Below, piece after piece: positions 36,473 to 61,207 of a stretch of 64,000 nucleotides of DNA. Both the position numbers and the translations under genes were made by a program. The notes under the pieces are model-generated. The model made no database searches. It worked only from the letters and a program-made list of their open reading frames with translations, and was not told where the DNA came from. Numbering within the stretch: position 1 is the first letter of the stretch; each line of letters opens with the position of its first letter. Source of the stretch: Spironucleus salmonicida (Eukaryota); contig NC_090599.1 in NCBI RefSeq assembly GCF_000497125.1, positions 248,001 through 312,000 on the forward strand. Direction: 5' to 3'.

Positions 36473-36647
36473 TTGTACGAAAAATTTGACTGAATTATCT
36501 TATTATATATTTATTATTAAATATCTAAAAATAAGTTAAATAATTTTCAGTATTTTTAATTTACCTGACTAATTGACCCTTTAAAATTTTAGAATAAATA
36601 AAGTAGTATATATATGTTATATTTTATAAACTTCAACTTTTCCAAAA
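36473..36647. promoter_or_regulatory. Putative 175-bp bidirectional promoter between the fibre-like paralogues
   Basis: Divergent ATGs at 36472 and 36648, with AT-rich TATTATATA-like tracts near each start as seen upstream of most genes in the window. Confidence 0.55.
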
Positions 36648-38117
36648 ATGCTAGATCGTTCAATCATTATCGCAATAATCATATTGATCTCTTTCATATT
36701 ATCAATCGTTATTATGATATGGACTATAATATTATATAATACACTAACTGCGTCAACAGTAGTATTTAATAATCTTATCATAAAAAATTAACTTACTTCT
36801 AATTTTTAGCCAACTACACTACTTCGTGCTGTATCTGGAAATTCACTTTTTGCTCAAATAGCACATGGTGAAAGATTGTAAACGTCTAATCCTTCTTTTG
36901 GTAATTTACCTACTGTAAAAAAATTTAGTTATACTACTGCAACAGCACCTAATTTAAATATCAATAAACTCTCAGTGAACAATACTATTGTTTAGATATA
37001 AACACAGATAGCATAATTTGTTTAATAGGGGACAATTCCCAGTCTAACGTGTAATAGTTTAACTATTAAAAATGGATAGGCTGGTGTTTTAACTACACAA
37101 CGATTCGCGAGTACTAATGCATTAGTCGGAGATCTTACAGGCGGTTAATTAATTTCTGGAAAATCTGTTATAGGTGAGCTTATTTCTACTGTTAGTACAG
37201 CAAATTCAGGAACAAATACCTAACTAACTTCTGTATAGGGGATTTATTCGCATAATGGTAATATACTAAGTATTGGTGGACTTAGAGTATAAAATTCACA
37301 GTTAACTTTTAATTCTGGTAGTACGTTCACTGCTCCTAGTTAATTCACTTCAACTAATAATTTAAATGTTAATTTTACTAGTATGACTATAGTTGGTCCT
37401 AATAGAATTAACATAAACACAAATTTAATTCTTTTAAATAATACATAAAACGTAGACTTAACAGTAGCAGGAGAAGGTATAGTAGATATGGGATAAATTT
37501 AGGGAATGACAATAAGTGCATTAGTAGTAAACACGTTAACATGTGATAGTTTAACGGTTAATGTTAATAGTAATATTTAAAATATGACGACAACTGCATC
37601 TTTTTCTACTGTCAGTTACACTAATGGATAAACTATAATAGATACTATAAAATTTTAAACTTAAAGGTTAAATTTAAAAGATGGAACTGGGAATACAGTT
37701 TTAACCTCTAACAGTATTGTATCTGCATAAGGTTTCACAATAAGGTCTAGTTTAAATTTAAATATTGCTGGAAATATGGTATGCTAAGCCGTTTCTTATT
37801 CAAACCTAATTTTCTCTACAAGTATTAATGTCGCAGGCGATGCATAGTTTACATAAAGTAATGGAAATTTTATTATATCTTAAACGTTAAATTCATTAAC
37901 ATCACAAATAACTGATACACTAAATATTGCAGGAACTTTGACAGTCGACAGAGTATTATAACCAGGCGGATAACCACTTATTTCCCCTTAAAATATAATT
38001 GTTTCAGGAACTCCGATACAGGGTGCTGGAATGACAGTTGGTAACGTATTCTCTGATACAATCCTCTTTTCAAAAGCAAATCTAAATAACAATTTGTGCA
38101 GAAATACCATGCAGTGA
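36648..38117 (+). CDS. Type II membrane-anchored, T/S/N-rich beta-repeat (fibre-like) protein B (489 aa)
   Basis: TM IIIAIIILISFILSIVIMIWTIILY. Colinear with protein A (TVVFNNLIIKN vs TVIFNNLIVKN; KFSYTTATA vs KFTYTTATA; QQGTIP vs QQGIIP). Confidence 0.85.
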
Positions 38118-38849: not shown

Positions 38850-41800
38850 TCACTATTTGACAATAAACTGAACTGTATCTTCCTCAATTACACAGTTAAT
38901 GATAAGTTTCTTCGAGAATAGGTTTTTACTAAGACTACCTGATTATCTATACTTAAAATATCCAAAATAATCATCGTTTTTCTATATATCTAAACTCCTG
39001 AGTCTAAATTAATGTATAGAATTTGATGGATGATTTGAAAATGTTATACAAAATTTACCGTCAGCTTCTGTTGTAGAAACAAACACAAAATTTTCTGATG
39101 GAATGAATCGCTTTTTAATGATTATAGATGAAAACAACGCATTTCCCTACTCAGGTATTATCGGAATAATCAATAAATCTGGTATTCCTGCACGAATAAA
39201 AATAAGTTTATCAGAATTTAATGAAATAGCAAAGATAAATTTATCTTTGATCTCAAACGATCTAATTAAATCAAAATTAGAATTATCATTAACTATAATT
39301 GAAGATTTTTGATAATCCATGTAGTCAAAAATACTAATTTGCCCAATTATAGAAGAAAAGTAAATCATTGAATGATTTTATAGATTAATTGATTATATTT
39401 TATCGCAAACACGAGAAACTACTGACACTATTTTTAATAAATCATGAACAAGCTGTTTTGACCCTTTTGTTTAAATATATGTTTAAAAGATTTATTTTGA
39501 AATAGGCAGTGTTTATTCTAAGATTATGCTACCAAATTGCTGCAATACACCAGGATAATTAAATTTAAGAAAAATAAAATATTTGTGAATGGAGTCAAAG
39601 CAACCAGAATTTTAATTTTTATTAATTAAATCGATAAAAACATTTATAAAACATTCTCTCCTAGTTTTTAAGAAAAATTATGTAACTTATTCATACGTAT
39701 ATGTTCTAAGATTTTCGTTTTCAAAATATGTGGAAAACTTAATTAAAGACTATATTATTTATATTATGTATTCAGAATCATCTATACTACCTGCATTGTT
39801 TAGAATTTCTTGACAATTTTCAAAACCAAATATGCTAGTTAAAAAGAAAAGATTATAAGATAAACTATGTAATAATAACCCTAAAGGTAAGAAATGACCT
39901 GTTGGTACGTTTGGTACATTCATAGCCTCATTATATTATTCAAATCTCATTATAATTTACTTAATTACTAATTTAAGACTATTTATTGCCTTTTGGGAAT
40001 CTCTAGATAATTCTTTTGACCCTCTGCCAGCCAAACTCACACTCTATCTTAAACTTGTTACACCTTCTAGCTCATCATAATTAGCTCCAATAAGTATAGA
40101 GCAAACCGGTTATGCTAAAGATTCTAAAATTACAATATATACTGGTATTTCATTTAATCTCTTTGCTTATACTTTTAGTATTAAATCTTATGTTTCTAAA
40201 ACTACATGTGAAATATATGAATCCAGAATTGAATGTTATATATACCAATCCGAAGCAATTTATTAATATAATCTAAGTATTGCAAAACAAGAATACTTAA
40301 TATGAATAGCAGATTCTAACATATAGTCATAAATATTATATAGAGATAAAAAATTATTGTTAGATTAAAAATACGCTTTAAATGCATCTTCTAAAATTTT
40401 AAATGATTCATCATTTATTTAATATTATGATGTCTAAAATTCATGCAAGAATGAAAATATAGTAAATATAGAGATAAATGATATTGTGAATAGATAATTC
40501 TCTTTTGATGAATAACATGGCTAATCAATAGAAAATGATATTAAAAACTATTCAAAGTCAAAATCTAATGATGTATTAAATGTTTAGTTAATTAATGTCA
40601 TGAAATTAGTAATCTCAGGAATATTTTACATATTTTAAGTAATATAAGTTATAACAGGCAAAATTCTTATACAAAATTATTGAATCATAAACTAGGCTTT
40701 TATATCGATTCTAAGATCAATTTTATCACAAAATATACTTTATAATTAGTATGAAAATATTTATGAATTTTCGTATCTAGAAAAATGAATAGTACGGAAC
40801 AATGAATGATCTAATAGTTATATTGTATCATATTATAAAAACTTAGATCTTAAATCCCAAAAATCTGGAAGGTCAATCTTTTTATTTAAAACTGGTTTAT
40901 ATTCTAGCTATGAAAGTTGGATTACTGATACTGAACTAGTTTATTATTCAGTTGTTGATTTAGTAGACGCCACTAAGCTTGTTTATGATGGTTCATAATT
41001 GGAAACAGACGCTCGTATATGAGTTTAAGGTTCGACATTGAATGTTTTGTTACATTCATCCATATATTATTCTAATCTCGCCAACATTTTCTTTAATTTT
41101 AATTAAAAAATATTTTTATGCTATACATAATACTCCTATGCATTTCCTTTACGACTTGTTACTTGTTGACTTTTTCTTTAAATATCGATAAGGGATAATG
41201 GGTCCTAATTTTCATATTAAATAAATACTTATTAAGCATTATATAAATAGCATTACTATTCGATATCCTTATTTAACGGATAATCAATAGTAAAAGAGCT
41301 TGTTTATGCGTAAATCATTAGCATCTCTGTGAATTATTAAAAAATAAACTGACTAGGCTCCAAAACTTCTAAATACCCTTATTACTATGACTCTAGATAT
41401 ACAATACTACCATTTTTATTTTAATCCAGTGCGTAAATCATATCATCTTATGGTAAAACTAAACAAAATTCAAATTATGATATAGGATTAATACATTAAA
41501 GTATATCTTTTGTTAAATTTTAAATATAGATAGTATTATAGTCAGTAATAACAGTACAATAAACAGACTTCTATTAGAAAACTACGACAGAACGTGGCTT
41601 ACCAAAAACGTAAAAATTAAAGATAAGTTCAATTTACGATATTTCATTATATATTTTATATATACTAATTATGCTTTCATCATCGTTATTAGAATATGTT
41701 GAAAATGCTAAATAGATACAATCAACAGATGATGATAAACACAAATTCTCAATCGGCTAAGTTGTAATCTTAAGCGATTTAAATTTTGCAATATTCAAAA

Positions 41801-42746
41801 TTTCTAGCTGCGATTCTTTAAAATTATATATTATAATAAGAGGTGTCATAGAAAATAGGTTAAGTGATGTATAGTGCATAGTTTTAATATGGGATAGTAT
41901 GATTCTATCTGCATATTTTTCATCTCCGCCAGATGAATAATCAATATTGGGTGTAAATTTAAGATTATCTAAATCTAAATATATTAAATCCTGTGAAGAT
42001 AACATTAACTATTTATTATTTTATTAAATAGATTCTAAACTTAATTTCAGATCATAAATATAACATGATTTATCTGACAAAAATAAATTAAACTTATTAT
42101 CTAAAAATTAAACACTAACTATTTTATACTTAGAAATTTCAATCTTATTTTCAAGTTATAACTAAAAATCGTATTATTCAATCATATTCTACCGGAAGAA
42201 ATATAACTTTTGCTGAAGACAAAAGAAATCTATAATATCTTCATTGAAAATAAGTTCTTTACTTAAAACAAATTACTAAAATTAAATAACATAGAATTAT
42301 TATTTGTTTATTAACATTCCAACAAATTCTTCATTTAGTTTAAAATATTATGAGGTAATTATATCATTTTTTGCTTGTATTTATAAAATCTCGCCAAAAA
42401 TATCAATAAAAACTATTTAATTTACCTTTGAAGCAATAAGTTGAGAATCATTTACCTAAAATACATTTATATACTAATCAAAGTTGATAAAATTAACATT
42501 CTTTTTTGTGAAATTATATACAAAAATTCCAGAATAGGTTTAAATAAAGATGTTTTATGTCTCATAAGGTGGTAATATAATTTTGGTACTAGAGTTAATT
42601 CTGATTTGGTCATAAAATTGATTTTATTTCGTAATATAAAGATGAGTGTCATAAATATATACAATATAATCTTATGTAGGGATAACATTAACTAAATTCT
42701 TTTGATACATCATGGAGTGAATTTAATGAACAGTTATATCTACCAT
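38850..42746 (-). CDS. Large protein with N- and C-terminal beta-propeller-like regions and a helical middle (1298 aa); WDR7/WDR72-like architecture is tentative
   Basis: A single frame joins ORF-track fragments 41757..42005 and 39147..39368. Short beta-strand periodicity at both ends (e.g. GQISIFD). Stop context TAGTGA. Confidence 0.7.
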
Positions 42747-42806
42747 TTTGATTAATGGAGTGGTTTATAATATATTTATTTATCATAATAAAAAGTTAAT
42801 TTTTTA
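42747..42806. promoter_or_regulatory. 60-bp divergent promoter region shared by the propeller gene and the dynein-like gene
   Basis: Divergent ATGs at 42746 and 42807 with an AT-rich core TTTATAATATATTTATT. Confidence 0.5.
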
Positions 42807-45800
42807 ATGAGCAGAAGACAACTAGTTATTACAAACTAAGTGGGTAACGCTTTAATAGCATTACTTAGCTAAGAAATATTATATGAAAATACTGAAAATG
42901 CATAGTTAATTGAAGTATTTCTTTCAACTCCCAGAATAAAGTTTCTTTACTTTGCTTTACCAGGATTTTTCACTTTACAATATCAAAGTAATGGATCAGT
43001 AGCTATAAAACCACAAGTAGATTTATACTAAACTAAGCTTCCTTTAGAATCTATATCATTTTTACTTATTAACAGTTAATTAAAAAATATGATTTTATAA
43101 AACTATTTTTAATTTAATTCGTTTTAGAAGGATGCATTCTTACCATTAAATAAAGCATTTGGGACATATTTTAGAAATGAAAACACTTAGCTTCCTTAAC
43201 TTACAGAAAATTAGTTGGCTTAAATATAAAAAACTGATTGCTAACCAGCCCACTTTGTATTTTTAGAAGAACTTCTTTATATATAAATTCAGGCTATGAG
43301 ATAGGTTATAAATTTTGGATTATAATAAAATTATCAGCCGATTTATTCTTAAATATAAACTGAAGAAGAAATACTAATTAACAATTAGTAGCCATTATCT
43401 CCAGTTGCTGTTCTATTTTATCGATTTTATTAAAACAAAAACTATAGCTATTCTACCATTGGTATGGAAACATTATTATATTTAACCCAATAAAATGGTT
43501 TATTTAGATATTTATAAAATCTAGTTATACATGAAGGTAATCTTCTCAATCTGTAGTCGTTTAATCCATAAATTTTGCAAATTTTAAGGAAAAGAAAGTC
43601 ATTAGCAGTAGGACAATATGATATAGTATCATTTAATGTTAATATAAGGATTAAGTTTATATAAAATTTAATAAAATTATTCAAACCTTCTTATCCACTT
43701 TTATGCAGATTTATTAATATGTCTTTTTCAAGCTTCAAACCAAAATACGAGCCTTTAATTAAAAACAATCAACACTAAAGGAAACTGTCATGGCAAACAG
43801 CTTAAATCCTTTTTGATATTGTTAATAAAATAAGCTAAAATATTAACTTTGATAAATCATTAACTCAATAAGAATTATACGATTAATAAAAAATAATCTC
43901 TTTCATATTACCTGCATTTTATAATGAGATTATATTAGCTACTAAAAATTATATGGAACTTGATAGCTAAGCAATCATAGACCCATAGAACTATACAATC
44001 AGATTGACGATGATTATAGATTTCTATAAAAATATGTACAAACTTACATAGTAAGAGATATTTGAAGGATATTTAAGAAAAGCTGGAAATGTATTATATT
44101 TAATATAGTAATTATATAATTATTAAAATCTTTTACAGGTTATCCAAGATGAATTTTTGCCATTTTCAGTATAACTGAAAGATGATATAGAAAACTCTAT
44201 TCTAGAGTTAAATAGTTTATGTATCAATAAATAAACTACATCATTCCTCACACTAGTTTCTGATAATATTTTACATGTTGTTAAGGAAGGAAAATAAATT
44301 GTATAGTACACACAGGAAGATAACCTATTAGTACCATATACAGATCAGCATATTATCGATGAACATTATCATGTAGCAGCATTATTCCATCTCAAATGTT
44401 AAATCATAACGGAAAAATTATCAGATCTAGAAATAAATATTACCAGTCATTTATTAGATGGATTTTAAACAATTGATTCAATTATTGAATTTTTATAGGT
44501 ATTCATCAAAGTCTCATATTTATTTACAAGTAAACCTGTTATTCTTTAGTTATCAAGAGTTTTTGATAATTACTTAATATTTGTTGTTAAATTTTTTGAT
44601 ACAATACCTACATCCATTAATGAATTAGAATACTAATAAACACAGATATGCAATATTGCAAAGTTTATTAATAAGTTGAGTATTAACTTATTATAATCTA
44701 TGTTATAATTAGAAGAGAATTGTTATTTTATATAAATATCTAAAGATACATAGTTTTAGACATTATTAACATTAGCAAAATTAATTACATAAAGGTTTCA
44801 CGAATATTTATAAGAAGACTTAACATTAACTTCTATAAAGTTGCATTCTATTTGCCCACATCTTAACTGGTTTATTATATAGTTTGAATAGTATTTAAGC
44901 AAGTCAACAGAATTAAAATCAAATTTAATAAGATTAAAAGAAGATTACCTGAAAGAGAAAGCAATTTATTTCTTAGAAAAAATTAATTAATCCGTATTTG
45001 ATGTTATCACCTAGGATTTAATTACGTTTATCGATTTAAATGGATTAATAAATTATCTTATTGAATTAGATAATTTTATTATATATTCTCATTAACAATA
45101 ATAATAAATAGAATTAGAAAGTTACGGAAATTTTGGTCTTTACCCTCCAGTAAACTGTTTTGTGCCTGATATTGCAATATCCCTTAAAACATAAGTTTAA
45201 AAATTTAATATTATTTATAATTATAAGTAGTTAACTTTTATTTATAAATCACGATTGAATTTATAGATTGACAACCTATTTTAAGTTGCTGAATCTAGTA
45301 AATTTTTAACTTGGACAATGAATTTATAACTAAAAGAATTTTCGAACAAAAGTGCTTTTATGCTTAGTAATTCTTTAATGAGCAACTAGTTATTTTTTGA
45401 GGTTATTGGTGAATGCACAGAAATGATAGATCAGTTTTATTTGGAAAATGAGTTTAACTAAAAAGATTTAGAATAATATTTATAATATGATGACGACTTT
45501 TTATAGTTACTTAAAGATACTATCATAGCAAATAAATCCTTTTTAATGTTTCCAGTTGAATCTTTCGATTTGGAATTGTAAAATTATTTTAAAATAGGTT
45601 GTTTTTGTTATGATTAAGGTTTAAAAACTCAACCTCCTAATTTAGAAAAGAAATCAAAAAACTTCAGAAAAGTTTCATCATAATTACAGAATAAAGAAAT
45701 ATTTAGAATTATAGAGCATACTATACTTAAATGTAAAAATTATTTAAATGAACTTATATGCAATATTTAAAATAAAATAATTACTAGTTTATCCGAAATA

Positions 45801-48800
45801 AATTAGGATTTTTATTTTCAAATTGTTCCAGATTTATAAATACTTGTCAATAAAATTAGAGATTTAATATCTTGTGTTTAAATTTTATAACTTGGTATAT
45901 TATTCTTATTTATGTCGGAGAAAACATATCCATTATTTTAAATTGATGCTTTTTATGATGATTCTATTCATTATAGTCCTGATATAATGACTACAACATA
46001 GCTTATTCAATTATTTTCTAACATTATCACAAATTAAGAAATAGACAGTCAATAAAATTTAGTAAATAAAGATGTGTTGCATAAATTAAGTTAATGGCTC
46101 GATATTATTTTAGATCTATAAAATTATGGTTATAATATTGATTTGACAAAATTTAAAGAATAATCTGATATTAATGTATTTAGTTCACCATTTACTCGCA
46201 TATTGTTATGGATTAATTCTATTATGTCTTCTCATTCATATTTAAACACATTTATCAATGAATTATAAAAATAATTTTAAATTACATTGGTGGTGAATTC
46301 TATGGATACTGTCACTAATTTGATAATACCATGCTTATATAATAATTGTAAATATCCTATTTCTTAGATTTAAATCTATTTATTTATTTAAATCGAAAAA
46401 ATATTCTAATAAATATTTGACTAAATATAAACGACAGAATAAAATATCTACATTATTGACGCAAAGATAGTTGAATTAAAAGCTATCAGATATTAAGTAT
46501 AAGATTTATTTTAGATTAAAAGTAAATTATAAAACCTATTGATAGAAGATTATGAAACTATTTAGAATCTTATATAGTTGTATGATGCAATTAAAGATGA
46601 ATCCGTATTGAAATAGTTTTTCTCATAATTTGATGTGTTCTTAGATTATCTCAATAAATTTTAATATTAGGTGAATAACATTCATTTAGGTTTCACAGTT
46701 CTAAATTCTACTAAATTATTATCATACTATTAAAAAATTGTATACGATATTGTACAGGAAGCAATGTCCCCTGTTGTCGCATTTATAGAAAGTGTACTTA
46801 ATGATTCTAGTGCGTAGCTATAAAAATAAATTGTGCAATTAGAACATGTAATAGAAGAATGCACCTAATAAACATCTGTAGATATTTCTAATTATAATAG
46901 GGTAGAAAAACTTATTAGAAGTTCATTTATAATGAAATGTTGTATTTAGACATTTATTCTAATTAATTAAAAATGCTTAGATATGAATATATTTTTAACA
47001 TCAAGCAATGTTTTAATTCATACTAATATAGACTAATTTTAAAGAGAATTACCAGTAATAAAATTTAAAATAGATGATATTAATTAAAGAGTTGATATAT
47101 TAGTTAATAATACACGAATTTAGTTCATTTATCATACTCATGAGTTATTTGGATAAATACTGACAACATAAGATTAGTTTATGGAAAAATTAATATTTAA
47201 TACTTTTAAGGAAGAGAATTTTAAAGATTTTTATATAAGTGATTCAGAAAAAATTATATCAAAAATAAGCTCACTTATTGAAATTGTTGATTAAAAACAG
47301 TTAGAATAGTTTAGAACATCACTACTTCATATTTATGAGTTAAGATATTTATAAGGATAATGCGAATGTTATGATATCCAAACTGAATATTACTCTTTGG
47401 CTAATATAAGTACTTTTGTTACTTAATAGATTAATAAATCGACATTTATTTCATTATAAAAGACAGTACAGTATAAAATATTGTCTTATTAGGAATTAAT
47501 TTTATTAATATAGTTATTTTAAAAATTGATATGTAAAAAAGTAAGTTATTTCTATAAAAGCGTTGATTCTTTTTTATATTCAGCAAGAGAGGCCCATAAT
47601 AAAATTATATATAATATAGAAAATATTGATAATGTTTAGATTAAAAAATAATTATATGAATGTATTAAAGTAATAGATTCGTTATGGTCTAAAATTACTT
47701 TTTTCTTGTCTTATAAACTTTTTTAAAAGCATCATTGGATAAAAGTTCTAATTACTATATAGAATAAAGACTAAAAGTAATATTAAAAAATTTAAAATTG
47801 TATATAAATTTGGTAAATTAATGATGAACCTGAAATTTAGTAATTAATGATAATATAAATAGAGCAAGTTAGTAATATTTCTTAGATTATATAAAATGCA
47901 TTTGAAGAAGATATTTTTAATAAAACTATATCTTAAATTACCATAAACTACAGATAAATCTTGGAAAGTGACAAATAAGTTCTCCTGCAACAAATAATCG
48001 AGCATTTATCACAGTTTAAATAGGAATCCCTAGATATTTCATACATAGACACAATAGGTATTCTTAAAAATTTGTAAGAAGAATTCGTGCAAAAAAGAAT
48101 ATAGTTTCATTTTAATTAGGCTATATCTTTGTATAAGTTACAATAAGTAAATGATCTAAACTTATAATAATTATTAAACTCTCTTTAATACCTTTAAAAA
48201 CTTTGTATTGAACATCCATATATGGATTAATTATCGGAATATAGATAAATTTATTACTAATTTCAATCATATATATTAGTATTTTTCTTATTTGGGTTGC
48301 TAATTTGTAAATCCTTTAATAATTTCTAAATTGTTTCCTTTTTATCACATTCTTCATTATTTGACAATTTGTGTTTAGATATTTCATGTATATACTAGAT
48401 TGGTACATAATAAGATATGAATGAAGTAATAAAAATATTTTCAGGGACAAGCATTACGATATATCAATAAATATTAAAACTATAGTATAGTGAGGAACTT
48501 GTAAATGATAATATTATTGTACTTAATCCAATCTTTAGCTATATCGACGACACATAACCTAATAATTATAATGAAGCATCGTAGAATGTCTTTAAAAATG
48601 ATGAAGAAATATCTGAAATCTCAGCAATATCCTTAAATGAGATCTCATAGGAAGATTTATAGATAAATTAAAATGAATGGGCTAAGAAATATTCTATAAT
48701 AGAGTCGCTCCTCTTAACTGTATAATTATAAGACAATATTCTTTAAAATATTGTTTAATTTATTAAGTGTAATCTCTAGGTTGCAAATAATGTAACAAAC

Positions 48801-51800
48801 AGTGCATATTATTATAGTTTAAATGCTCTTCTAGAAAAGGTCAGACAAATAGAGAGTCTTCATCTTTTGAAATTAATGACAACTAATTCAGACATATTTC
48901 CTATTGTTTAAAAAGATATTTTAGATTTAAATTTTATCAAAGATTTTTGCTAAGTATTTATATCAAATAATCTGAATAAGTCTAAGTATAGTAAAATTTT
49001 AACTATCTTAAGAAAAAAAGCTAATATTAAAAAATATTTTCAAATATAATAAAATGTCGAAAATTAGAACAACAACAGTTTGTTTCTGAATTTTATTTAA
49101 GAAATGTCAATAAATGTGCTATATCCATTTATCGCTTCTACTGTCATATCCTCATATGAAGTAAATACTATTATTGGATTTTAAACAAAAAGTTAGGTAG
49201 ATGAAAACTCACTATCCACACAAACATTCGTACCACTATATAGACCAATTAATACATAAGATATGCCTGAAATACCATGTATTGTGTTTCCATTTTCGAT
49301 TAACCACCCATTCCTACAAATTATTGTCCAACTAATACTACTTATTGAAGAGTCAATCGCCATTTATACCACATAATGTATCAAAAAACTTAGGTTAATG
49401 CTACATATTTCGACACATGGAGATAGTTATTACTCACCAAATTTATAAAACGATTACGAATTCCCACTAGAAATTTTCCAACATTCAGACCAGTATAATT
49501 ATCCCTGTACAATCTACCCTTCAGAAGTAATATAAACTGCCTTTTATATAGTATTGGATTCGAGTATTGTTATTCCACATGAAATTTATATAGAAAAGGA
49601 ATACACTCTGCAGAGTTCTGTATAAATGGGCGTCCTACTAATCTCAAAGCTTGAACTTTTCATTCAGCAAATTTAGGAATTTATTTCAGGATTCCTATCG
49701 GTACAACACAAGAAAAAGAGTTTTGTAATAGCTATGGTTTCAGAATTACCATTCGCTTACGAAAAAGCGAATATTTTATATAATATTGCTAATTAATTTC
49801 TGACAAAGCTAAAAAGTATTTTATAAAATCAGCAGCAGAATTAGCATATCCGGAACATGATTAACTATGATGCCAATAATTACCTATATAAGTAACTAAA
49901 GTAGCCATTTGTAGTCATTCAACATGAAATTTTGTTATCCAACGACGATACTTTTCAGTTTCTAGCTAGCTCGGTACTACTGCAACTTTAGAAAACAGAG
50001 CTAAATCCAGAGTAGCTGATTATTCTTTTGTAAGATGGTTCTATTTCTAGGATATCATATGTATAGTAAGTGTATGCATCAAGGGAGTAATATATGCAGA
50101 CTGATATGTTGCCATTTTTGAGTACGTTTGCTAGTAAAAAGTTGACAGAATCAGCACAGTCGCTTTTAATAGATTTTCAGGTTTTGTAGAAAATTAATTA
50201 TTTAGCATCCAAGCTTTCATTATTATATCAGGTTTAATAGTTCTCACATCTTAGAGAGTATGCTTTATAGATTTATCATCCGAAATTTAAATAATTAGTG
50301 CCAGGAGCTGGTGATCTGTTGTCTATTCGGTAATTTTCATTACCTAAATACGATTTTCTGAACATTAAGTACTTAGATTAAATAAGTTTTCTTATTTTAA
50401 CTTAGCTTAAACCTCAAATTTTTGGAGGTAGGAGTTCTGTTCGATCTAAAACATATACAAATAATTACACATCAACTTTTATATCACAAGCAAGAAACAA
50501 CGTGGTGACAAATGATGTATTTGGATAGCCATAGTGTGAATATATAGTTAATATTTAAAATTCTTCATATAGTATGAGTTATAGTTAAACAGAAGATACA
50601 TAAGATTAAACGCAGAGTGTTAAAACAGTTTAATATAAATTTCATCTAGTTTAAAGAGAATAGGGATGGGATAGATTATAATGTGCTAATAATTACGACG
50701 ATCAATATTCACCTTTTTATGATGAAGTGACTAAAAACATAGAAGACGAGCTAATAAAGGACTCAGTAATAGTAATAGATACCTTATGTGTATTCGTCGT
50801 TTTATCTTCATATTAATATGCCCAGTGCGAAACAGATTTCTATTATGATATCGTTAGCTCTGATTTTTTATAATAATAATGGTGTTAAAGTATAATTAAT
50901 TTTCTATAGGGAAAGTTAAAGTTGGATTAGTAGTTTAGATTTAAAGTACAAGTATAAGAATTAGTCACTCTCTTAAATAAAATTCCGCCACTCCATTTAA
51001 GGATTGGAATTTAAAATTTTTATGAAAGCTTCTTATCAACATCAAACATTACTTTATAACTCTCAAATTATATATCTGAATATTCTATAATCAGATATAA
51101 TATTATAATTAATAACATAAGCAAGTATATTTATTAAATTCTTAACCGTATAGTACTACTTACTGCATAAAGAGTTTAAATACATGTAATAAATTTTAAT
51201 TTTCACTAGTTATAACTTTTGGATGAAATTGCTATTTTATTAAAGTACTGTCTTCAATTATACATAAACGAAGATGTGGAGCTATCTTTCATTAACAATA
51301 TTTAATCTTAAATAGCCAAGGATTCCATGAAATAGTATAATCTTATTGTCTTTAATAATATAAATTAATAACAAATATCTGAATAAGATATTAAGCTCAT
51401 TAAATCTCAATATTAATCTACATAAATGATAATTTTATTAGTAAATTAATCTAAAAGTATACATTATCCTCTTGTTGATTACTAATCAACATTACAGTAA
51501 TTTGGATTAGCTTAATTATTAATGATAAATATTATTATACATTATCAAAAATGGGTTAATATGAAAGATATAATTTAATAGGAGTAAGAATTAGATTATT
51601 TAGATATATTTAGTGAAAAATTCTAAGGAGAAAAATTAGAATTTAAGAAGTAATTAAGTAAAAATCTTCTAATGACTAACTATTTTTACAAATATTAAAA
51701 AATTATTGTAAATAACACTATTATTGATATTTATATTGATGTTTTACTGCAAATAATGGTAATTATATAAGATCAAGCAAAACTAAAATATAATGACATG

Positions 51801-54800
51801 TTAAACCTTTAGCTTAATGTCATGAACAGTATATATTCCTCTTTTGATGCAGTTTTATTTTAATTACATTGTCATCTAAATTTAAAAATTATTCAAGTTC
51901 CACATAGTTTTTGGCTTGGTCTTGTTATATTTTTTTCATACTGGTAATATAAGTAGCTTAAAATCGAAATGCCACAGAAAGCAATAATGTAATCAAGAAA
52001 TAATAGATTTTTGCCGTCTATACTAACATTTAAAACGGTAAGTGAATCACAACAATCAAATTAAGATTTTAATTCTTGGGATATTTTCTTAACATAAACT
52101 GTTGGGTTAAATTTAATGTTTAAGATATAATCAGATCTTTCAATAAACAAGTTTATTCCTCAGTTAGTAATAGAAAATAAGCAAATTCATCATGTATTTG
52201 TCGAGCTAGATTCAGTAGAGTTATTTGATACATATACACACATATCTGATATTATTTCCGTATTATACATGAAAATTGAATAAAAATATTGCACATCAAA
52301 ATAATAAAATACTAAATTTATTAATAAACTATTATCTAACTAAATAATTCATTAACATGGAATAATGAAAGGTGTTGATATTATTATCTTAAAGCTGTTC
52401 ATCTAAAAATATCATTATAATAACTATGTTGAAATGGGGTCTAAGTTTTAATAAAGTATTTTAATCTAGAAAATCACATCAACTTAATATATTGATAATT
52501 ACATATTTAATAACAACTATATTGAATCTTCATACAATCCTTTCAATATGTATCATAAGAATTTAATTTATATAATATAAATTAATGATTAAAACACGGT
52601 AAATTTAATAAATTAAAAGCAGTTAAACAAAAATATTTTTCTCACTCTTGAAGATTCTAATTTGAATTAATTTTTAATACCATTATATTAAAACTAATAA
52701 CCTCTAAACTAAACGCAGATAGTTATGAAAGAAATTGCAAATCACTTTAAATACGAAGAAATTAATTCTATTATCACATACTAGAAGATAAAACTAGATC
52801 AAATATCGAATTATTAAGCTTTATCTACATCATTACCTTAAACATTATGTTTTACATTAAATGTTTTGTTCATTGCATAAAATTATTTTTAATGTTCATT
52901 TAAAAAGTTTTTATTAAAACACTAGTCTTTTTTTAATTAAATATTATAGCATGATTCTGTGAATTAATTATTATAAAAACATTATAGCAATCTTCTTAAT
53001 GATAATCCATAATTTTAATTTATTATTTCTACCTTATTTAATAAATTAGAATTTAGTATTTGCAAGCCAATAGTTCAATATCCAGGTAATAATGGTATTC
53101 CATTTCAAGATGATACCTATTATTAAGATAGTTACTAAATAATTAATGCAGACACTCTTGTTGTTAGTCAGCACAATATTATCAATTTGAATAAATCATT
53201 TCTATCATAATATAATGCAAATACTCTATAACTGTAAAAATTGATATTCTTTTTAGATTTTTATTAGCATTTGTAAGTCTATTAAAATGAAATTTATTTA
53301 CTGGATATAGTTCAAGATGTAACAATAATCACAAATTCTAAGTTTTATGTTTACTAAAACCAAAATTTCTTAGATTTTTATCTAGGTGTTTGTTTAAAAG
53401 TTGTATTACTCAAATAAAGATGCATTATATTAGTTCAAAATTTAGAAATTGAAGGAATATTATAATATTTAACAGAAATACTACAAGATGGTTATTCTAC
53501 TAGTTTGATTACCTAATGTACTGCTGATCAAGAGATTATGTTTTTGTAATAAATTAAAAATCTTAGCAATACATATGATTTATAATTTTTTAGTATTTTA
53601 GATGTTTTGTAATATAAATTTTTTGAAAATAATTCTATATTAGACCTTATTCACATTATAATTGAATCTAATGATTAAAAATCAGATAATATGATAATTG
53701 ATCTCCATTAAGATAAGATAGAAGAATCAATATTTTCAGACCTTTATTTAACTACATAAAGTTAAAAACTTGAAGAAATTCATCATTATCATTAGACAAT
53801 TCTAACACACTTAAGAAATACATTCACGGTAACAGAATAATAATTACTTTATTTTTAAGATATTTAAAACTAAGTCAATTAAAATATAATTGACCATGAA
53901 TAAAGATTTAAGCGTACCTTACCTAGTTATTAAGATTTATAGTCAGTGTAAGATTTTGAGTAATAAAATATAGAGTATAATAACAAAATTGAGTAACACA
54001 ATAAACTTATGGATATACAAGTTAAGATTAATAATGATATAAATTTAGAATTAAAATAAATATAAGATTAGATTTTATTATCTGAACAATATTAGTAAAC
54101 ACTTCGGCATAAATTAAAATAGTATCGACTAAATGTAAGGTAAATTAATCATTATTAATTCCATGTTTATAAAGAAATTAGTTAGATTACAATTTAAGCA
54201 ATTTATTTAGTGATAACTCAAGATAAAAAATTTTCAAATGTGGAGAAGTATATGCGTAGAAAATTTGATAACATTGATAAATTAATTAGAGATATAACTG
54301 ATTCGTCAGTAAATATACCAAAGGATTGCATAACGATTTTGTTGTCACTTATATAAGTTAAAGATTAAATGTTTAATAGTAATTAGGATTTTAATGATTA
54401 AATTGAAAAGCTCATTTTCTAATCATAACTTGATGAATTTTTGTTAAAAATAGTACTGAATTTACTTTTTCTGAGCTAGAAGACCATAGAAATTGAGCAA
54501 AATCAACTACTAATTCCTCCGTTATAGAGTAGAATTAGGCTGAACTAGTTAGGATAATAGAAATTAAATAAAAAATTAGATTAAATTATTAATGAGTAAA
54601 ATAAAATTTAACTGAAAATAGATTTTATTAAAACAAATGCAGAAAATTAGATAACAAAAAATTAATAGTACACTCGAATTTTAGATGAAATGCACAATAT
54701 CAGCAGTTAAGTCAAAGTAATTACACCTAATATATATTATCAGTGTTAAATTGTTAGAAATTTAAATAAAGAACTCGAATTTAATTCTCATTTAGCAGCA

Positions 54801-55859
54801 TTTCTTCTTTACTAACAATAATATTTCTCTTCATAGTAATAAAATTTACTTGAAAAATCATTTGGATAAGATATTAACATACCATAAAAATTTTTGCCTT
54901 ATATTTTACAAAATTATTTTACTAAATAATAACTAATTTCTCTGTATAAAATGTGTAGTAAATATAAGGTTTTAAATAAGAATATAATAATTACTAAAAA
55001 TGATACTTAAATTACATAAGAAAAAATAGTATTTTTAATGTAAAAACACAAAACTGATGCTGCATTTTGTGACCAGCTTTTCAATCTGTTTAATGCATAA
55101 ATAAATTAGTTAGAAGAGTTTTTATTTGAAAATTTGATTAATCTTTTAGATAATGACATTATATTTCTTATTCTGAAACAAGTTTTCTTAAGTAATTCAT
55201 GTATATTATAAACAGATAACAAGCAAATCGCGGAATTAATAGGAAGCTTTATGCAATATAATACAATTATGCCATTTGAATATTATACTAGAATTAACAT
55301 CTGCACAACTTCATAAGACATTCAAAAACTTAATTTTAATAGAGACTACTATCAAAACGATTAAAATTGTGTTATATTGATTTATAATATTGAGTATTCT
55401 GTTGTTAAACCGTTGTTACATTCTAGGCATTATGGAAATATATATAGATTTGACTACAAAACAGGATCAATATAAGACAAAGAGTCTTATATAGAATTTA
55501 GCTCTTAGGTTGATATTAAAATTCTATATGTCTAATAGTAAGATGTTAATGATAAGTTTATTAACACATATGATATTAAAGTAAAAAAATTAAAAAAAGA
55601 TAAGAATGCAGATTATAATTCATACTAAATACACTAATCTAATAGCTAAACCATAAAGAAATATGATGAAACTCTAGATAGTTACGAGTAACTCCAAAAG
55701 TAATAACAACAATTGTTATAATTAATTCATAAATAAAATCAAAACCATAGTAGTATTAATGAAATAAACTAAGGATATTAACTATATAAGGACTCTCTTT
55801 ATGCGACAATAATTAATTTAATTGAATACAAAAAATATATTGTAGGTAATGTTGAATGA
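42807..55859 (+). CDS. Giant degenerate dynein-heavy-chain-like protein (4350 aa)
   Basis: Every TGA across 13,053 bp was checked and none is in frame before 55857. DHC-like segments occur in the expected order: tail, linker end (FQIVSFLSHSSLFDNL ~ FPRFYFLSNDELLEIL), stalk coiled coils flanking an MTBD-sized insert, NSHLAAFLLYQQQYF (~GDxLLxAAFLxYxGxF), and an AAA5-like region. Confidence 0.72.
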
Positions 55860-55904
55860 TTTGTATTTTATTATATATTATCATTTAACTCCCTTTTTAG
55901 GTTT

Positions 55905-56624
55905 ATGAATATTGTCTATGATGTTAAAAATATATAATCCTTTTAATTAAGCAATAAAGAATAGTATATAATAGATCTATTTGAGATATATGTCCCTATA
56001 TGTTATCATGATAATGCTTTTTATATATTTATTTAAGATGATTTATAACAGTATATAGACATCTTTACACCTGCTGTGTTTTGTCCTGAATTATATTAAA
56101 CAGCATTATTAAACTAATTTATTTACTAGTCTAATGTAAGTATTTATAAATAAAAGCTATATTTTAAAGAAAACTCTGTGTTATTTTTAATTAATATCAA
56201 AAATAATGTAAAAGATAATATAAAAATATAAAATAGGAAATTAACTATTAAGCAGTCATAAGTATAGCATGCGAATTTTAATAAGCTTAAACCCAATTAT
56301 GATATAATATCATTAATTAGAAGAGAAAATTATCATAATAAAAAGGATTCGATTTATTTTAATGAATTACACTAACCAGTTTATCCTATTCCATTTTTTA
56401 ACAAAAATATCGCTCTTAAAAGTATAATTGGTTTAAAAAATAACAACAATAAAAAGCAAAAGACAGTAAGTTTTTCATCTAACATATAAGTATTCGGCTA
56501 AGACATTGAGATCCATGTAGGAATCAGAAAAGGAATTCAGATTGATGATTCATAATTTGTAATATCCTAATTTACTAGAGATTACTGTTAAGAAGTATCT
56601 GATCTATTTTTATAAAATATATGA
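55905..56624 (+). CDS. Hypothetical protein (239 aa) with an RVxF-type motif
   Basis: ATG after a short TTATATATTA tract. KQKTVSFSSNIQVF resembles a PP1-docking motif. Confidence 0.6.
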
Positions 56625-56664
56625 ATTTAATCTGAATTAGTAAGTGATATTTTTACCAAATTAC

Positions 56665-58092
56665 TCAAATACCCCCTTCTACCCAATCTAAATAGTCAGG
56701 CTTTTCTGCTGCTGCATACTCTGCGATTAAACTCGTGCAGCTTTCTCTGGAATCCTAAAATTCTTATAGCATTTCTACATCTGACTCCCATAGTTCGCTT
56801 GATCGATAGTTTTACATAAATGGGGCCGTACGGCCTGTTTCTCCAAATTACTTATTAAAATCTTTGCTAATCCTCTAAAATATTTCTCTAACCGAAGTAT
56901 GGTTTGAAATAAGTAACCCTGATACCTTAGATTATTCAGCTATTAAAGGTGATCTTTTAGAAACTGCCAATTGAATATTTGATGGAGCCCAGGGTGAAAA
57001 TCTAACAGATCTACGTTCTTATAATCTAGTGACAGATCTATGTAATTATGTGGAATCTAATTAACCTTATAATAAATTTAATAAAGATATGTAAGTCCCA
57101 TCTCTAGAACAGGAAACAAGTCCATTTCCAGGGTGTAATAATCTCCTCATTACATCTAAAACTGATGTTTTTCTAACTTAATTTTATCCTTAGTACATAT
57201 CTTTGATTGCTTATTAAGCATCATATTCTTATTCCACTGGGTCAGTTGTCATAAGTTGCTAAATAGGAGTGAACGCCGATATTAAATAATGAAGTCTTGG
57301 AGTTGGAACTAAGCAGCCTATTAAAGATAGCATATCATTTACCATGAATCCAGGAAGTCTTAAAGTACTTGTTGATGCAGCCATAACTGTGGAAATAATA
57401 GCATTTGACTATTAATATCCAGATTTTGAATCTGCTGATTAGTGCTTTTCAACAATTCTATCCAATGATGTATTATCAATTGTAAAAACCGCATCTGCAT
57501 TATTTGTCAATCTCTTCATTGTCAACATGGAGTTATAAGGTTAAACTACAACCTCCGAAGTAGTATGATTTGGGAATACGGAAAAAGTTTGCAATAATTT
57601 CTTTGGATAGCGTTCTGATAATTTTTCTAATAAGCAAGATCCCATTCCTGAACCCGAACCTCCAGCAATTGAGTGTGTAAGGTTAAAGCCTGAAAAAGAA
57701 TCAGCCCCCTCAGCTTCTCTATCAATCATGTCTAAAATAATCTCAATGTCAACTTCTGTTTATTTATAGCCAGATGCCCAGATATTACCCGCTCCTGTTT
57801 AGTTCTTAGATATATAAATATTTTCAGGGTTGAACAATGATCTAACAGGTGATTCTTGACGAATGTAACCAATAGCTCTAGGTTCTAAGTCTAATAATAA
57901 TGCTCGAGGAATATAATGGTTATCATCTGCCTAATAAAAGAAAACATCTTTCCTATCATCAAAATTTATTGCTTCAGGAGCCAAAGAACCATTAGCCAAT
58001 ATACCGTGTTCTAGACACAGTCTATGCCAAAATTCTGCCCCAATTTAATTACCACATTAACCACACTGTAATGTTATTATTTCTCTCGGCAT
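56665..58092 (-). CDS. TUBG1: Gamma-tubulin (475 aa)
   Basis: [59 protein letters not shown] and PDYLDW. Confidence 0.98.
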
Positions 58093-58142
58093 ATATGAAA
58101 GGGAAAATTTATTAATAATTATAATATAATAATATATAATAA

Positions 58143-58721
58143 TCAGATACACCAATCTTAATTTAGTGACCACATAAATTCTGGCTCCTCTTTTGTATCT
58201 AATACTTCAAAAGTACAGTGTAATGTGCTAAAATTACCAATATTACTTAAATCTTATAGTTATGGTGGAATAGGAGTACGATAAATTGGGACCTGAGATT
58301 AATTTTTAAAACTAAAAACTTTTTTAAGAGTATTTTTAGCGTTATTGAATGCTATAGTAAATGAATTTCTATGATATTACTTACTTAGTTTTTATTTAAT
58401 AACAAACTGCATTTCTTTAGTAATATCACTACAATCTTTTAACAATTTATAAACTTCTGTCCTAATGATATTCATATCCGATTTTTCAATATTTCCAAAT
58501 AGATGTCTTTAAAAATTATCAAAATACCAACGATATACCTATTATTTTGATAGTCCTGTTTACAAAGCTAATTATTCCCACGGAAACGACTTTCTTTATT
58601 CTTATAAGACATTATCTAATATTGTATGGTCATTAATTAGTTACTATACTGTATATTAGGAATACTTAGACAAAATTTAGGCCATCTGTGGGATAACAAT
58701 TTATGACGACACTTTATGCAT
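58143..58721 (-). CDS. Divergent Myb/homeodomain-like HTH protein of a hexamitid-expanded type (192 aa)
   Basis: FPWEQLALQTGLSK...YRWYFDNFQRHL and YHRNSFTIAFNNAK. Confidence 0.65.
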
Positions 58722-58893
58722 TTTTAAATATACATCTCTTATTATTTTAGTAATAAATACAACATAATATAAAACCTATAATTAAATTCAAAATCATTAT
58801 AGTTAATAGTGCAAATAGGAGAATAATAATAATATTTTTAAATGTAGAATCTTTAAAAACTAAAATGAAATAGAATAAACCATAAAACGAGAG

Positions 58894-60651
58894 TCATTTA
58901 AGCCTTCTTGCAGCTTTACCCATTTTTTGCTAAAGAGCTGCACCAGGTCTGCCATCCGGACCAACACTAGGGGCTACACCAGCGGCATCTAATTTTCTCT
59001 TCATTTCTTTAGTCTTATTTTGTTCTTTCTTGATATTTTAAGTATCGTTAGGCATATTGAATGTCTAGTCCACCAATAAGACAATACAAGCAGCCTCTAC
59101 AGCGGATCTCAAAGCATTCACACGGATATTTGCAGGTTCCCAAATAAATGCTTCCATAGCATCAATTGTTGTATAATCATTTTATATATCAACACCTTAC
59201 CAGCAAATTTCATTGTTTCTAATTCCTTTTGCATGCTTCGAACGAAGTTGATTTAATATATCAGTAGAATCAAACCCTGCATTATCACACAAAGCGCGAG
59301 GAATAACTTCTAAAGCATTAGCAAATGCTTCTATTATAATTTACTCTTTACCTGAAATAGTTTTGCAATGTCTTGATAAATATTAACTTAATTGCATTTC
59401 AATAGAACCTGCACCAGCTATAACAGTAGGTGTTTTAACTGCTCTACGGACAACCATAATAGCATCATGTAAAGATCTTTCAGATTCAGCAATAAATTAT
59501 TCAGCCCCACCTCTAAGGATGATTGTGCATACTTTTAATTCATCAAAACCAGTTATAAAGTTGAAACGTTCAGCACCAATTTACTTTTCTTCAAAAAGCT
59601 TTGCATCACCTAATACATTAGTTTGAATGTCAGATACTGCTGAAATTATATTTGCATTAGTTTATATAGAGATTCTCTTAAGATCAGCATCTGTAACTCT
59701 TCCAGCGCCGAAAATGCCATGATCTGCAAAGAATTATGTTGCCAAATCACCAATTGATTTATTTGAGAATACTACAGTGGCTCCAGCTTCTTTAATCATA
59801 TTAAGTTTGTTATAAATAATAGAATATTCGGCTTCAACAATCTCTTTGAACTTAGAAGGATCATTAAGACGGATTTCAGCGCCTTCTTTTTCAGCAGACC
59901 ACTCTAACTCAAAATTAAGTAATAAAATTTTAGGAGATTCAATGCATTTTTTGTATTATTCATGACCAGCATACGAAAATGTTTTCTTGAAAGCTATACC
60001 ATGTACTAAAAAGGACTCTTGAAGAGCACCACCTAAAACTTATTTAATACCTAAGTTGTGAAGATCCAATTAATCATCATTTCTTTTAAGGGCCAAAACG
60101 GCATCAACACACATTTGAGAAAACTACTCTTTGCACGGAGCAATGAGTTTAGAATTCATAGCCGTACCAGCAAGTTTTTTAAGAGTCTGAGCATATTACT
60201 GATCTTCGAACTTTCTTTCAACCGAACGGATCCTATCAATGCATATAGATAATGCTTTTCTGTAGCAACGAGCAATGATACGTGGATGAACTCCATCTTC
60301 AACTAATTATGAAGAATGTTTTAAGAAGGAACCTGCTAAAACACAAACTGAGGTAGTACCATCACCGATTTCTGAATCTTATGACTTAGAAATATCAACT
60401 AAACAGCGAGCAGCTGGATGAGTGACATCTAAAAGAGATAATATTGTTGCGCCGTCGTTAGATACAGTTGCATTTCCACCTTTAATAAGCATCTTATCCA
60501 TACCTCTTGGTCCAAGAGTGGTTTATAAGATATCAGCGAGTGAAACACAGGCTTTTATATTAGTTAATAACTGTCCTTTACCCTATGAGGTATCTGTACC
60601 CTCTTTGAGAACTACAATTGCAGGTTATAAACCAAATTTTGACTGCTGCAT
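58894..60651 (-). CDS. CCT7: Chaperonin CCT/TRiC subunit eta (585 aa)
   Basis: [44 protein letters not shown] and [14 protein letters not shown]. Confidence 0.97.
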
Positions 60652-60751
60652 TTATAAAATGTTTGGAGTGAAGAGAAAATTTTAACTAAATTAGATCATA
60701 AAATAATATATAATTAATACTTTATTCAAAATCATTTGTAAATAAGTGGGA

Positions 60752-61120
60752 ATGAATCATGAAGCTATTGTTCAAAAGTTGCGGCAGTAATAATAGCATT
60801 CAAAACTAATCGCTCTTTAGAAGTTAGTAAAAATTTATAATCTTAATACCATTTTACCCAACCTCCTTCATTCACTAATGATTGAAGATGTTATTTATCA
60901 TGATAAACATGATTACTTAGCATTGAAGAATGAGATTTTACAATAGAATCTGATTTTTTATTAAGCCTAATTGCCTATTCTTCTAATAAATATTCATGGA
61001 TATCTTTTTACTCTTTCTCTTCTTTAAAAATAATAAATTTGCTTACAATTTTATTAACTTTAACCTTACTAAAGCTAGTAGAGTAAACAATAATCTATTT
61101 GTAATCAAAAATAGCTTTGA
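60752..61120 (+). CDS. Hypothetical protein (122 aa)
   Basis: ATG-TGA ORF divergent from CCT7. Low complexity, so it could be spurious. Confidence 0.4.
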
Positions 61121-61207
61121 TATGTATTTTAGGTGTTTATAGTAACTACCGAAACACCTATTTACTCATTTATGACCAAATACTTTGTGTATTATATAAT
61201 AATTATA

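Follow-up and report, generated by a model that had tools for sequence, protein, structure and literature searches.

A 4,350-residue ciliate-code protein without P-loops and its single known relative: a possible degenerate offshoot of dynein heavy chains

The window analysed here, a 64-kb stretch of DNA, holds a giant reading frame on its forward strand. Under the ciliate code (table 6) this frame stays open from 42441 to 55859, i.e. over 4,472 codons, 401 of which are in-frame TAA or TAG read as glutamine. The coding sequence (42807..55859, + strand) begins at the first ATG, 42807, and specifies 4,350 aa followed by a TGA stop. The original prediction of an uninterrupted 13-kb ORF, invisible in the standard code, is confirmed on both counts: the terminal TGA is the only one of the coding frame, against 55 to 165 TGAs in each of the five alternative frames over this stretch, and table 11 yields no ORF of at least 150 aa between 40000 and 58000. 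Besides, the order GC1>GC2>=GC3 is found in all nine 1.5-kb blocks of the ORF. Because a single frame is free of TGA and the GC periodicity is maintained throughout, this ORF did not arise by chance; it is a genuine, intact nuclear gene and, as was proposed from its intact frame, no pseudogene.

The part of the open frame that precedes the first ATG (42441..42806, +) displays GC1/2/3 values of.21/.18/.24, without the coding pattern, and the divergent neighbour gene has its ATG inside it, at 42746; judging from this composition and this neighbour, the stretch is probably non-coding. The protein itself is rich in Ile, Leu, Gln and Asn and mostly helical, with neither internal repeats nor TM-like segments. 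No tRNA gene was detected within the 64-kb window.

At the 3' end the TGA at 55857-55859 is real, and beyond it the frame continues for a further 255 codons without a stop, the GC pattern by codon position being unchanged. A candidate 54-nt intron (GTAAT...TTTTTAG; 55847..55900, +), recognised from the DNA letters only, overlaps the stop, and its splicing would remove the TGA in frame. The stretch that follows (55901..56624, +), in the same frame, would be either a C-terminal extension of 240 aa or a small gene of its own with ATG 55905 as its start; its GC1/2/3 (.27/.18/.18) matches that of the last 765 nt of the ORF, and its product contains no Pfam family and shows no likeness to dynein or to P0002, the relative described below. 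With this intron the protein may reach about 4,590 aa. The protein had been claimed to stop shortly after AAA5: the stop exists, but the candidate intron could bypass it and no AAA5 is matched. Contigs of three sequencing runs, whose RNA nature is only guessed, agree with the window letter for letter; of its 30 bins they cover 11, 10 and 7. The stretch at about 54308-55839 is covered by contigs of all three runs with no joint in any, expression, strand and ends being not readable from them; 55840-55924, the candidate intron region, is covered by none among the contig pieces listed.

Pattern searches over the 4,350 residues returned no Walker A, either strict (G....GK[ST]) or loose, no GK[ST] of any kind, and no Walker B (hhhhDE). 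By the same criteria the canonical dynein of contig L061, used as control, displays three strict P-loops. With both Walker motifs missing, the protein cannot be a P-loop ATPase, and the attributes expected of a dynein in this respect, Walker A and B in AAA1 plus P-loops in AAA2 to AAA4, are all missing. The absence of any Walker A had been correctly foreseen, and so had the catalytic inertness, at least in the sense of a non-P-loop protein.

All direct comparisons with dyneins were negative. The whole protein matches none of the dynein Pfam families (DHC_N1/N2, AAA_6-9, MT, Dynein_C, lids) at E<=1, and none appears at E<=10 in 19 overlapping 300-aa windows spanning residues 1351-4350; a piece of dynein L061, as a control, gave 4.7e-66 for AAA_9 and 3e-32 for MT. 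The check proposed with the original prediction, the table 6 translation against these profiles, thus revealed no dynein family, and a PDB sequence search with the protein found no match. We then used a profile of eight canonical heavy chains (ORFs of 3,140-4,711 aa, contigs L055 and L061-L067), with shuffles as decoys. Against the whole protein it gave negative scores only; its sliding sub-profiles never ranked first among decoys (best rank 2 of 29), and a colinear chain of their matches was equalled by 19 of 80 decoys. The profiles of the linker, AAA4, CC1+MTBD and AAA5 gave nothing above decoys (for CC1+MTBD, 257 of 400 decoys scored as high), and that of AAA1 no match. Taken alone, the protein reached 1.1 bits with the profile of the junction between the second arm of the stalk and AAA5 (CC2/AAA5), a score attained by 259 of 1000 shuffles, and for the AAA2-lid region its score was attained by 862 of 1000 shuffles.

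The dynein landmarks that had been read by eye along the protein fared accordingly. The string LEELLYIQIQAMRQVI, announced as tail-like helices near 43260, does occur, at nt 43263, but is no more dynein-like than shuffles. HLAAFLLYQQQYF is also present at 54789; its assignment as the post-stalk motif is rejected, since the junction score of its own segment is at shuffle level. The AAA5-like string IITDNKQIAELI is absent, the actual sequence at nt 55203 being ILQTDNKQIAELI, and the supposed linker-like region is not sustained by the linker profile of the eight dyneins.

The protein has nevertheless one relative. A phmmer search with residues 2100-3299 against 1.84 billion representative proteins found a single match, P0002 (E 2.8e-8), a protein of 5,756 aa encoded in the standard code. 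BLASTP aligns the two in colinear segments, with E values of 3.7e-15 (residues 2103-2332), 3.4e-5 (989-1385) and 0.027 (371-403). The best conserved block (49113..49802, +; residues 2103-2332, P0002 2812-3043) shares 25-26% identity and is locally the most GC-rich part of the ORF; the second (45771..46961, +; residues 989-1385, P0002 1439-1891) shares 20% by BLASTP and is colinear with the main one. The main block matches neither PDB nor Pfam nor the dynein linker/AAA1, and the impression gained by eye that it could be the linker/AAA1 junction was rejected by hhalign (49 of 100 shuffles as high). Significant similarity to P0002 is confined to residues 371-2332, the last 750 aa showing no significant likeness. 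Given this significant colinear similarity, the two proteins are, on sequence grounds, homologous over the N-terminal two thirds of the 4,350-aa protein, and they form an unannotated family of which P0002 is the one other member known. We infer that their C-terminal parts would be homologous as well.

Further searches did not enlarge this family. The sequence cluster of P0002 has one member, and residues 2700-3700 of P0002, used as query, found only P0002 itself. A word-seeded search of 5.8e9 proteins gave none at E<=1e-3, either among 2,567 candidates of 2,392-7,613 aa or among 7,999 candidates of 30-2,391 aa. Metagenome contigs provided 595 and 161 pattern matches and no confirmed one, tblastn reading TAA/TAG as stops so that ciliate-code relatives are unconfirmable in this way. 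The conserved block had no match in ten "bacterial" MAGs with eukaryotic dynein contigs, which, these MAGs being incomplete, is not evidence of absence. PDB searches with the P0002-based profile and the block profile retrieved nothing relevant at E<=1 to 10.

The only significant dynein signal of the family comes from P0002. At full length it matches the eight-dynein profile with an E value of 7.4e-4, 0 of 100 decoys scoring as high, and in one place only: residues 5195-5297 (about 85-100 aa) against the stretch where the stalk ends (CC2) and AAA5 begins, in terms of Pfam the final third of the MT (stalk) region. In a targeted test against the junction profile the same segment reached 14.4 bits (E 1.3e-6, 0 of 1000 shuffles as high), and hhalign gave E 9.6e-5; as the segment was picked in knowledge of the match, freedom from bias can be claimed for the full-length figures only. 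The information-rich half of this alignment is a non-coiled motif, the remainder being partly coiled coil. The colinear chain of sub-profile matches of P0002 scored 15.9 against 1.8+-2.4 for decoys, none of 80 being as high, and two weak dynein-like matches, at 1482-1519 and 3798-3828, lie upstream in colinear order. In the other searches P0002 is as silent as its relative: no Pfam family is precomputed for it, the final 1,215 aa match no dynein family at E<=10, the whole has no PDB match at E<=10, and the AAA1 and AAA4 profiles give no signal. By its sequence, P0002 carries a dynein stalk-base signature, and its C-terminus lies 459 aa past this junction.

To what extent this signal can be transferred to the 4,350-aa protein depends on the alignment of both. 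MAFFT places residues 3964-3990 (54696..54776, +) under the stalk-base motif of P0002. Aligned in this way, the protein scores 32.9 with the dynein junction by hhalign, against 26.8+-3.0 for permuted versions (1 of 60 as high); the fit is due to residues 3964-3979, away from HLAAFLLYQQQYF. Residues 3027-3118 (51885..52160, +) are the counterpart of a stretch of P0002 weakly resembling the dynein AAA2-lid/AAA3 motif, and the profile made from this pair scores 23.9 against dynein by hhalign, a value that none of 150 column shuffles attained.

Around the first of these stretches the protein may form a long helical hairpin. Long helices, the candidate first arm, cover residues 3655-3752 (53769..54062, +); a less regular insert of about 160 aa follows (3753-3911; 54063..54539, +), and long helices again, the candidate second arm, cover residues 3912-4001 (54540..54809, +). 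These limits come from the DSSP assignment of a structure model, for the arms together with a crude heptad score, whose maximum over the protein lies at residues 3701-3950. The helices are given low weight because the pLDDT of the model is about 32: AlphaFold2 run on residues 3300-4350 from the single sequence had a mean pLDDT of 31.7, and run on the P0002 block plus the 4,350-aa protein one of 36.3, both unusable. The expected pair of long coiled coils enclosing an insert of MTBD size thus finds an echo in the heptad peak and the modelled helices, but not in the CC1+MTBD profile. The insert resembles its P0002 counterpart weakly, its score being reached by 23 of 500 shuffles. Past the candidate second arm there remain about 350 aa, or about 590 with the possible extension; these are too few residues for the six-AAA+ ring of dyneins with its AAA6 and, usually, its C-terminal domain.

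Compared with the eight canonical heavy chains, the protein is of similar overall size and, like them, would carry, about 350-700 aa before its C-terminus, a long helical hairpin, and P0002 matches their CC2/AAA5 junction. On the other hand canonical dyneins have P-loops and Pfam dynein families, both lacking here; their AAA1-AAA4, linker and tail have no detectable similarity in the protein, and about 1,130 aa follow the hairpin in L061, against about 350. As the one place where the sole relative P0002 resembles the dynein profile is the stalk end, we favour for the family an origin as a dynein offshoot: an extremely degenerate, ATPase-dead descendant of a heavy chain, a reading which for the 4,350-aa protein holds by transitivity via P0002 and to which we give slightly less than an even chance. 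A dynein heavy chain ancestor would have lost every nucleotide-binding motif, and with AAA6 and the C-terminal domain its final 600-700 residues, to end 360-460 aa after the stalk, and would have retained the long helical hairpin near its C-terminus. Its role would be that of a non-catalytic structural or regulatory scaffold rather than a motor, probably on microtubules or the axoneme. Against this reading, no dynein is known that is without AAA6. In its full form, tentatively proposed and somewhat more doubtful than the descent itself, this reading makes of the two proteins an ancient family in two distant eukaryotes (the table 6 host, and the standard-code host of P0002), dynein descendants which lost all four nucleotide sites and the AAA6/C-terminus and were kept under selection at more than 4,000 aa as a non-motor scaffold that no sequence profile recognises.

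The family might instead consist of lineage-restricted giant helical, coiled-coil scaffolds of no dynein ancestry, the size and the pair of coiled coils being coincidental and the P0002 match due to chance or convergence. AT-rich ciliate genomes contain many large orphan ORFs, every direct dynein test on the 4,350-aa protein failed, an AAA module is detectable in neither protein, and the P0002 match is a single stretch, partly coiled coil, with a modest unbiased E value. However this match coincides precisely with the stalk base, in a position close to the C-terminus and preceded by a long helical region, it was equalled by no decoy in three tests, its richest half is not coiled, and the homology of the protein to P0002 is clear; we consider a complete absence of dynein ancestry rather unlikely, albeit a serious rival. 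Even less probable, in our view, is a mosaic in which an unrelated giant N-terminal scaffold, the part common to both proteins, became joined to no more than a stalk module of dynein origin, either in their common ancestor or on the way to P0002; this module the 4,350-aa protein may or may not keep. Such a fusion would account for the similarity between both proteins being significant only in residues 371-2332, for the dynein likeness being significant only in P0002 5195-5297, and for their C-terminal regions being not significantly alike; the weak upstream matches of P0002, the total lengths and hairpin position resembling those of a heavy chain, and the junction pair alignment exceeding nearly all its permutations speak rather for a descent of the whole family, and not of the stalk module alone, which we infer.

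Giardia splits its dynein genes, and an end so close to the candidate second arm could recall one piece of a split gene, as was originally envisaged, or a decaying pseudogene. P0002 also ends about 460 aa after its junction, therefore the short C-terminus is a family trait; furthermore a mere split does not explain why the upstream parts are unrecognisable as dynein, and decay does not agree with 13 kb free of TGA with coding periodicity. We regard this last possibility as very improbable.

Should the dynein descent of the family be correct, it would find its closest parallels among aberrant heavy chains. The tails of 75 orphan dyneins are, except in one diplomonad case, alignable end to end with known classes (Kollmar 2016, PMC5100056); these protist orphans are lineage-restricted and aberrant, as proposed for the 4,350-aa protein, which by contrast aligns to no dynein. 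DNHD1, an "orphan" animal heavy chain placed in DHC class 11 as a sequence-recognised dynein (Kollmar 2016, PMC5100056), has a poorly conserved AAA1 site and is thought non-motile (bioRxiv 10.1101/2025.01.18.633724), which is close to our proposal of a dynein-derived, non-motile chain. Nevertheless its motor domain is complete according to the AlphaFold3 description in that preprint, and it is this description that sets apart the 4,350-aa protein, unrecognisable and without the C-terminal third of the motor. DNAHX of externally fertilising animals, with a decayed AAA1 site, is proposed in the corresponding part of the same preprint to be a non-motile structural or regulatory partner (bioRxiv 10.1101/2025.01.18.633724); the present family would share this fate, but it is far more degenerate and occurs in its table 6 host and one other eukaryote.

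Word searches of the open-access literature did not bring up any ciliate protein described as dynein-like yet free of P-loops and AAA6. The dynein censuses, with their 17 classes and additional orphans, depend on recognisable motor domains, and dynein descendants of this kind would be "dark" members of the superfamily missed by all of them. If the family is not of dynein origin, the gene is an ordinary large, fast-evolving orphan of an AT-rich genome, notable mainly for its one very distant relative. If it is, the non-motile, "dead" type of dynein, so far represented by DNHD1 and DNAHX of animals, would have an earlier origin, a wider distribution and a much greater plasticity than is assumed, and dynein motors would gain a new structural state, that of an AAA+ assembly left open or made of five modules.

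The gene of the giant protein is real and intact. Its frame is open on the plus strand from 42441 to 55859, i.e. over 4,472 codons including 401 TAA/TAG (glutamine in table 6), and its first ATG, at 42807, gives 4,350 aa; under the standard stops no ORF in 40000–58000 reaches 150 aa. The frame contains only its terminal TGA, against 55 to 165 TGAs in the other five over the same 13.4 kb, and GC1>GC2≥GC3 holds in nine of nine 1.5-kb blocks: such an open frame is not a product of chance. This bears out the intact gene claimed by the original prediction. The absence of P-loops is likewise confirmed, as the 4,350 residues contain neither a Walker A, strict or loose, nor GK[ST] nor hhhhDE; the sequence thus excludes a P-loop ATPase. 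Its composition is dominated by Ile (12%), Leu (12%), Gln (11.5%) and Asn (8%), with just 1.4% Gly. Two of the three strings quoted in the prediction are present where it placed them; the third was misquoted.

Word-seeded searches among 5.8e9 proteins returned no relative of the giant protein near the query's length or shorter. An exhaustive phmmer search with residues 2100–3299 against 1.84e9 representatives gave a single protein at E≤1e-3, P0002 (E 2.8e-8): 5,756 aa, encoded on an 82-kb contig, recorded as one standard-code protein, alone in its cluster, ordinary and Leu/Ser/Ala-rich in composition, and with no precomputed Pfam family. BLASTP aligns the two in three colinear blocks, residues 2103–2332 of the giant protein with 2812–3043 of P0002 (E 3.7e-15), 989–1385 with 1439–1891 (E 3.4e-5) and 371–403 with 415–447 (E 0.027). 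These blocks make the two proteins homologous at least over residues 371–2332, the first half of the giant protein; its C-terminal 750 aa show no significant likeness to P0002. The best conserved block of the family matches neither dynein linker/AAA1, nor PDB, nor Pfam. Within the ORF, a GC peak at 48807–50307 (GC1/2/3 of.36/.24/.27 vs about.27/.20/.19 elsewhere) coincides with this block conserved with P0002.

For comparison with dynein, the AAA1 P-loop was back-translated and a prokaryote genome collection scanned, giving 54 loci in MAGs labelled bacterial. The 14 contig regions retrieved yielded eight long single-frame heavy chains (3,140–4,711 aa, pairwise identity 27–31%), from which a profile of 3,857 positions was built; Pfam recognised AAA_8, MT and AAA_9 in the one heavy-chain piece checked.

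The heavy-chain landmarks that had led the giant protein to be read as a dead dynein do not rise above chance against dynein profiles. On the table 6 translation, a check proposed with that reading, Pfam found no dynein family in the whole protein (E≤1) or in 19 overlapping 300-aa windows covering residues 1351–4350 (E≤10), the few weak matches being all to unrelated families, and phmmer against all PDB chains gave nothing relevant. The eight-dynein profile, filters off, scored only negatively; with 38 sliding 200-column sub-profiles and 40 window-shuffled decoys, the giant protein never came first (best rank 2 of 29). Nothing exceeded 400 decoys with the linker, AAA1, AAA4, CC1+MTBD and AAA5 profiles, and the colinear-chain statistic did not stand out from the decoys, 19 of 80 of which scored as high. 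The segment containing the supposed post-stalk motif scored 1.1 bits against the profile of the CC2/AAA5 junction, a value equalled by 259 of 1,000 shuffles. AlphaFold2 gave only models of unusably low confidence, with a mean pLDDT of 31.7 for residues 3300–4350 as a single sequence and of 36.3 for the conserved block with two alignment rows.

P0002 has no dynein family in its last 1,215 aa (Pfam, E≤10) and no PDB match at E≤10. Its sole stretch aligned with dynein, 5195–5297, faces residues 3406–3508 of L061, one of the eight heavy chains, which form the final third of what Pfam delimits as MT (stalk), where CC2 ends and the conserved motif of the stalk base lies. A 121-column junction profile, run on a P0002 segment picked after the match was seen, gave 14.4 bits (E 1.3e-6, none of 1,000 shuffles as high); hhalign gave E 9.6e-5 for the junction, and the colinear chain of non-overlapping sub-profiles reached 15.9, a value that none of 80 decoys (1.8±2.4) attained. 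A second match, weak, post hoc and colinear, joins 3798–3828 to an AAA2-lid/AAA3-region motif (6.2 bits, 1 of 1,000 decoys as high). No match was reported with the AAA1 and AAA4 profiles, and with those of AAA5, linker and CC1+MTBD the signal was marginal at most, since 59, 27 and 13 of 400 decoys, respectively, scored as high.

In a full-length MAFFT alignment, residues 3964–3979 of the giant protein fall under the stalk-base motif of P0002, and hhalign against dynein with the giant-protein row added gives 32.9, vs 26.8±3.0 when its residues are permuted, a single one of 60 permutations scoring as high. Homology at this place is thereby weakly hinted at. The predicted motif at 3995 lies outside that of P0002 in the same alignment and was rejected as a post-stalk motif. 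At the AAA2-lid site none of 150 column shuffles equals the pair profile against dynein; the giant protein by itself scores at chance level, thus the signal stems from P0002.

The dynein idea survives solely through P0002, by way of a stalk-base signature rightly placed there, which the statistics support, and of the homology of the giant protein, whose own landmarks are at chance. Both proteins have a similarly short C-terminus and would have a similar late helical hairpin; P0002 stops 459 aa past the junction, whereas L061, a canonical dynein, continues for about 1,130 aa. That the family is a profoundly degenerate, motor-dead descendant of dynein has, in our estimate, slightly less than an even chance. 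An unrelated orphan scaffold, with which the empty Pfam and PDB searches would agree better than the junction score of P0002, is less likely; a mosaic having only the stalk module in common with dynein, consistent with that junction and less so with the AAA2-lid match, is less likely still. Beside the uninterrupted frame, a split gene or pseudogene is very improbable. The known dead dyneins, DNHD1 and DNAHX (bioRxiv 10.1101/2025.01.18.633724) and the protist "orphan" dyneins (Kollmar 2016, PMC5100056), are described as still recognisable by sequence and keeping a full motor. If dynein descent is true, the family would be a new and far more extreme variant of dead dynein than any of these.

Past the TGA at 55857–55859 the same frame is open for 255 further codons, to 56624, with GC1/2/3 of.27/.18/.18, like the last 765 nt of the ORF (.29/.18/.20) and unlike the upstream leader. 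Splicing of a candidate intron read from the sequence (55847–55900, plus strand, 54 nt, GTAAT...TTTTTAG) would excise the TGA in frame. The 240 aa that this would add belong to no Pfam family and resemble neither P0002 nor dynein; the stretch could equally be an extension of the giant protein or a separate small gene from ATG 55905 (239 aa).

Under the table 6 reading the window is nuclear DNA of ciliate type; Pfam families occur in 8 of 18 other large ORFs, among them protein kinase, LRR protein, RasGEF and MutL-type protein. Just downstream of the giant ORF, a tubulin-family gene (56665–58173), a TCP-1 chaperonin subunit gene (58894–60735) and an enkurin-domain gene follow one another on the minus strand over 56665–62059, each a single uninterrupted table 6 ORF. 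Upstream, a divergent 1,298-aa ORF without Pfam family (38850–42746, minus strand) has its ATG 60 bp from that of the giant ORF, so that a very short promoter region would be common to both. Two ORFs on opposite strands, 35006–36781 (minus) and 36039–38117 (plus), overlap in their upstream parts and give no Pfam family. Both encode similar Thr/Ser/Asn-rich proteins, in each of which a single hydrophobic helix at the N-terminus precedes a motif that is closely alike in the two. They look like a divergent paralogous pair of secreted or surface type.

The dynein AAA1 P-loop on 54 contigs of bacteria-labelled GTDB MAGs, at least eight of which encode near full-length heavy chains in a single frame, shows that species-representative "bacterial" genomes contain eukaryotic contigs, probably of protist origin; many of these MAGs come from rumen, gut and pond samples.
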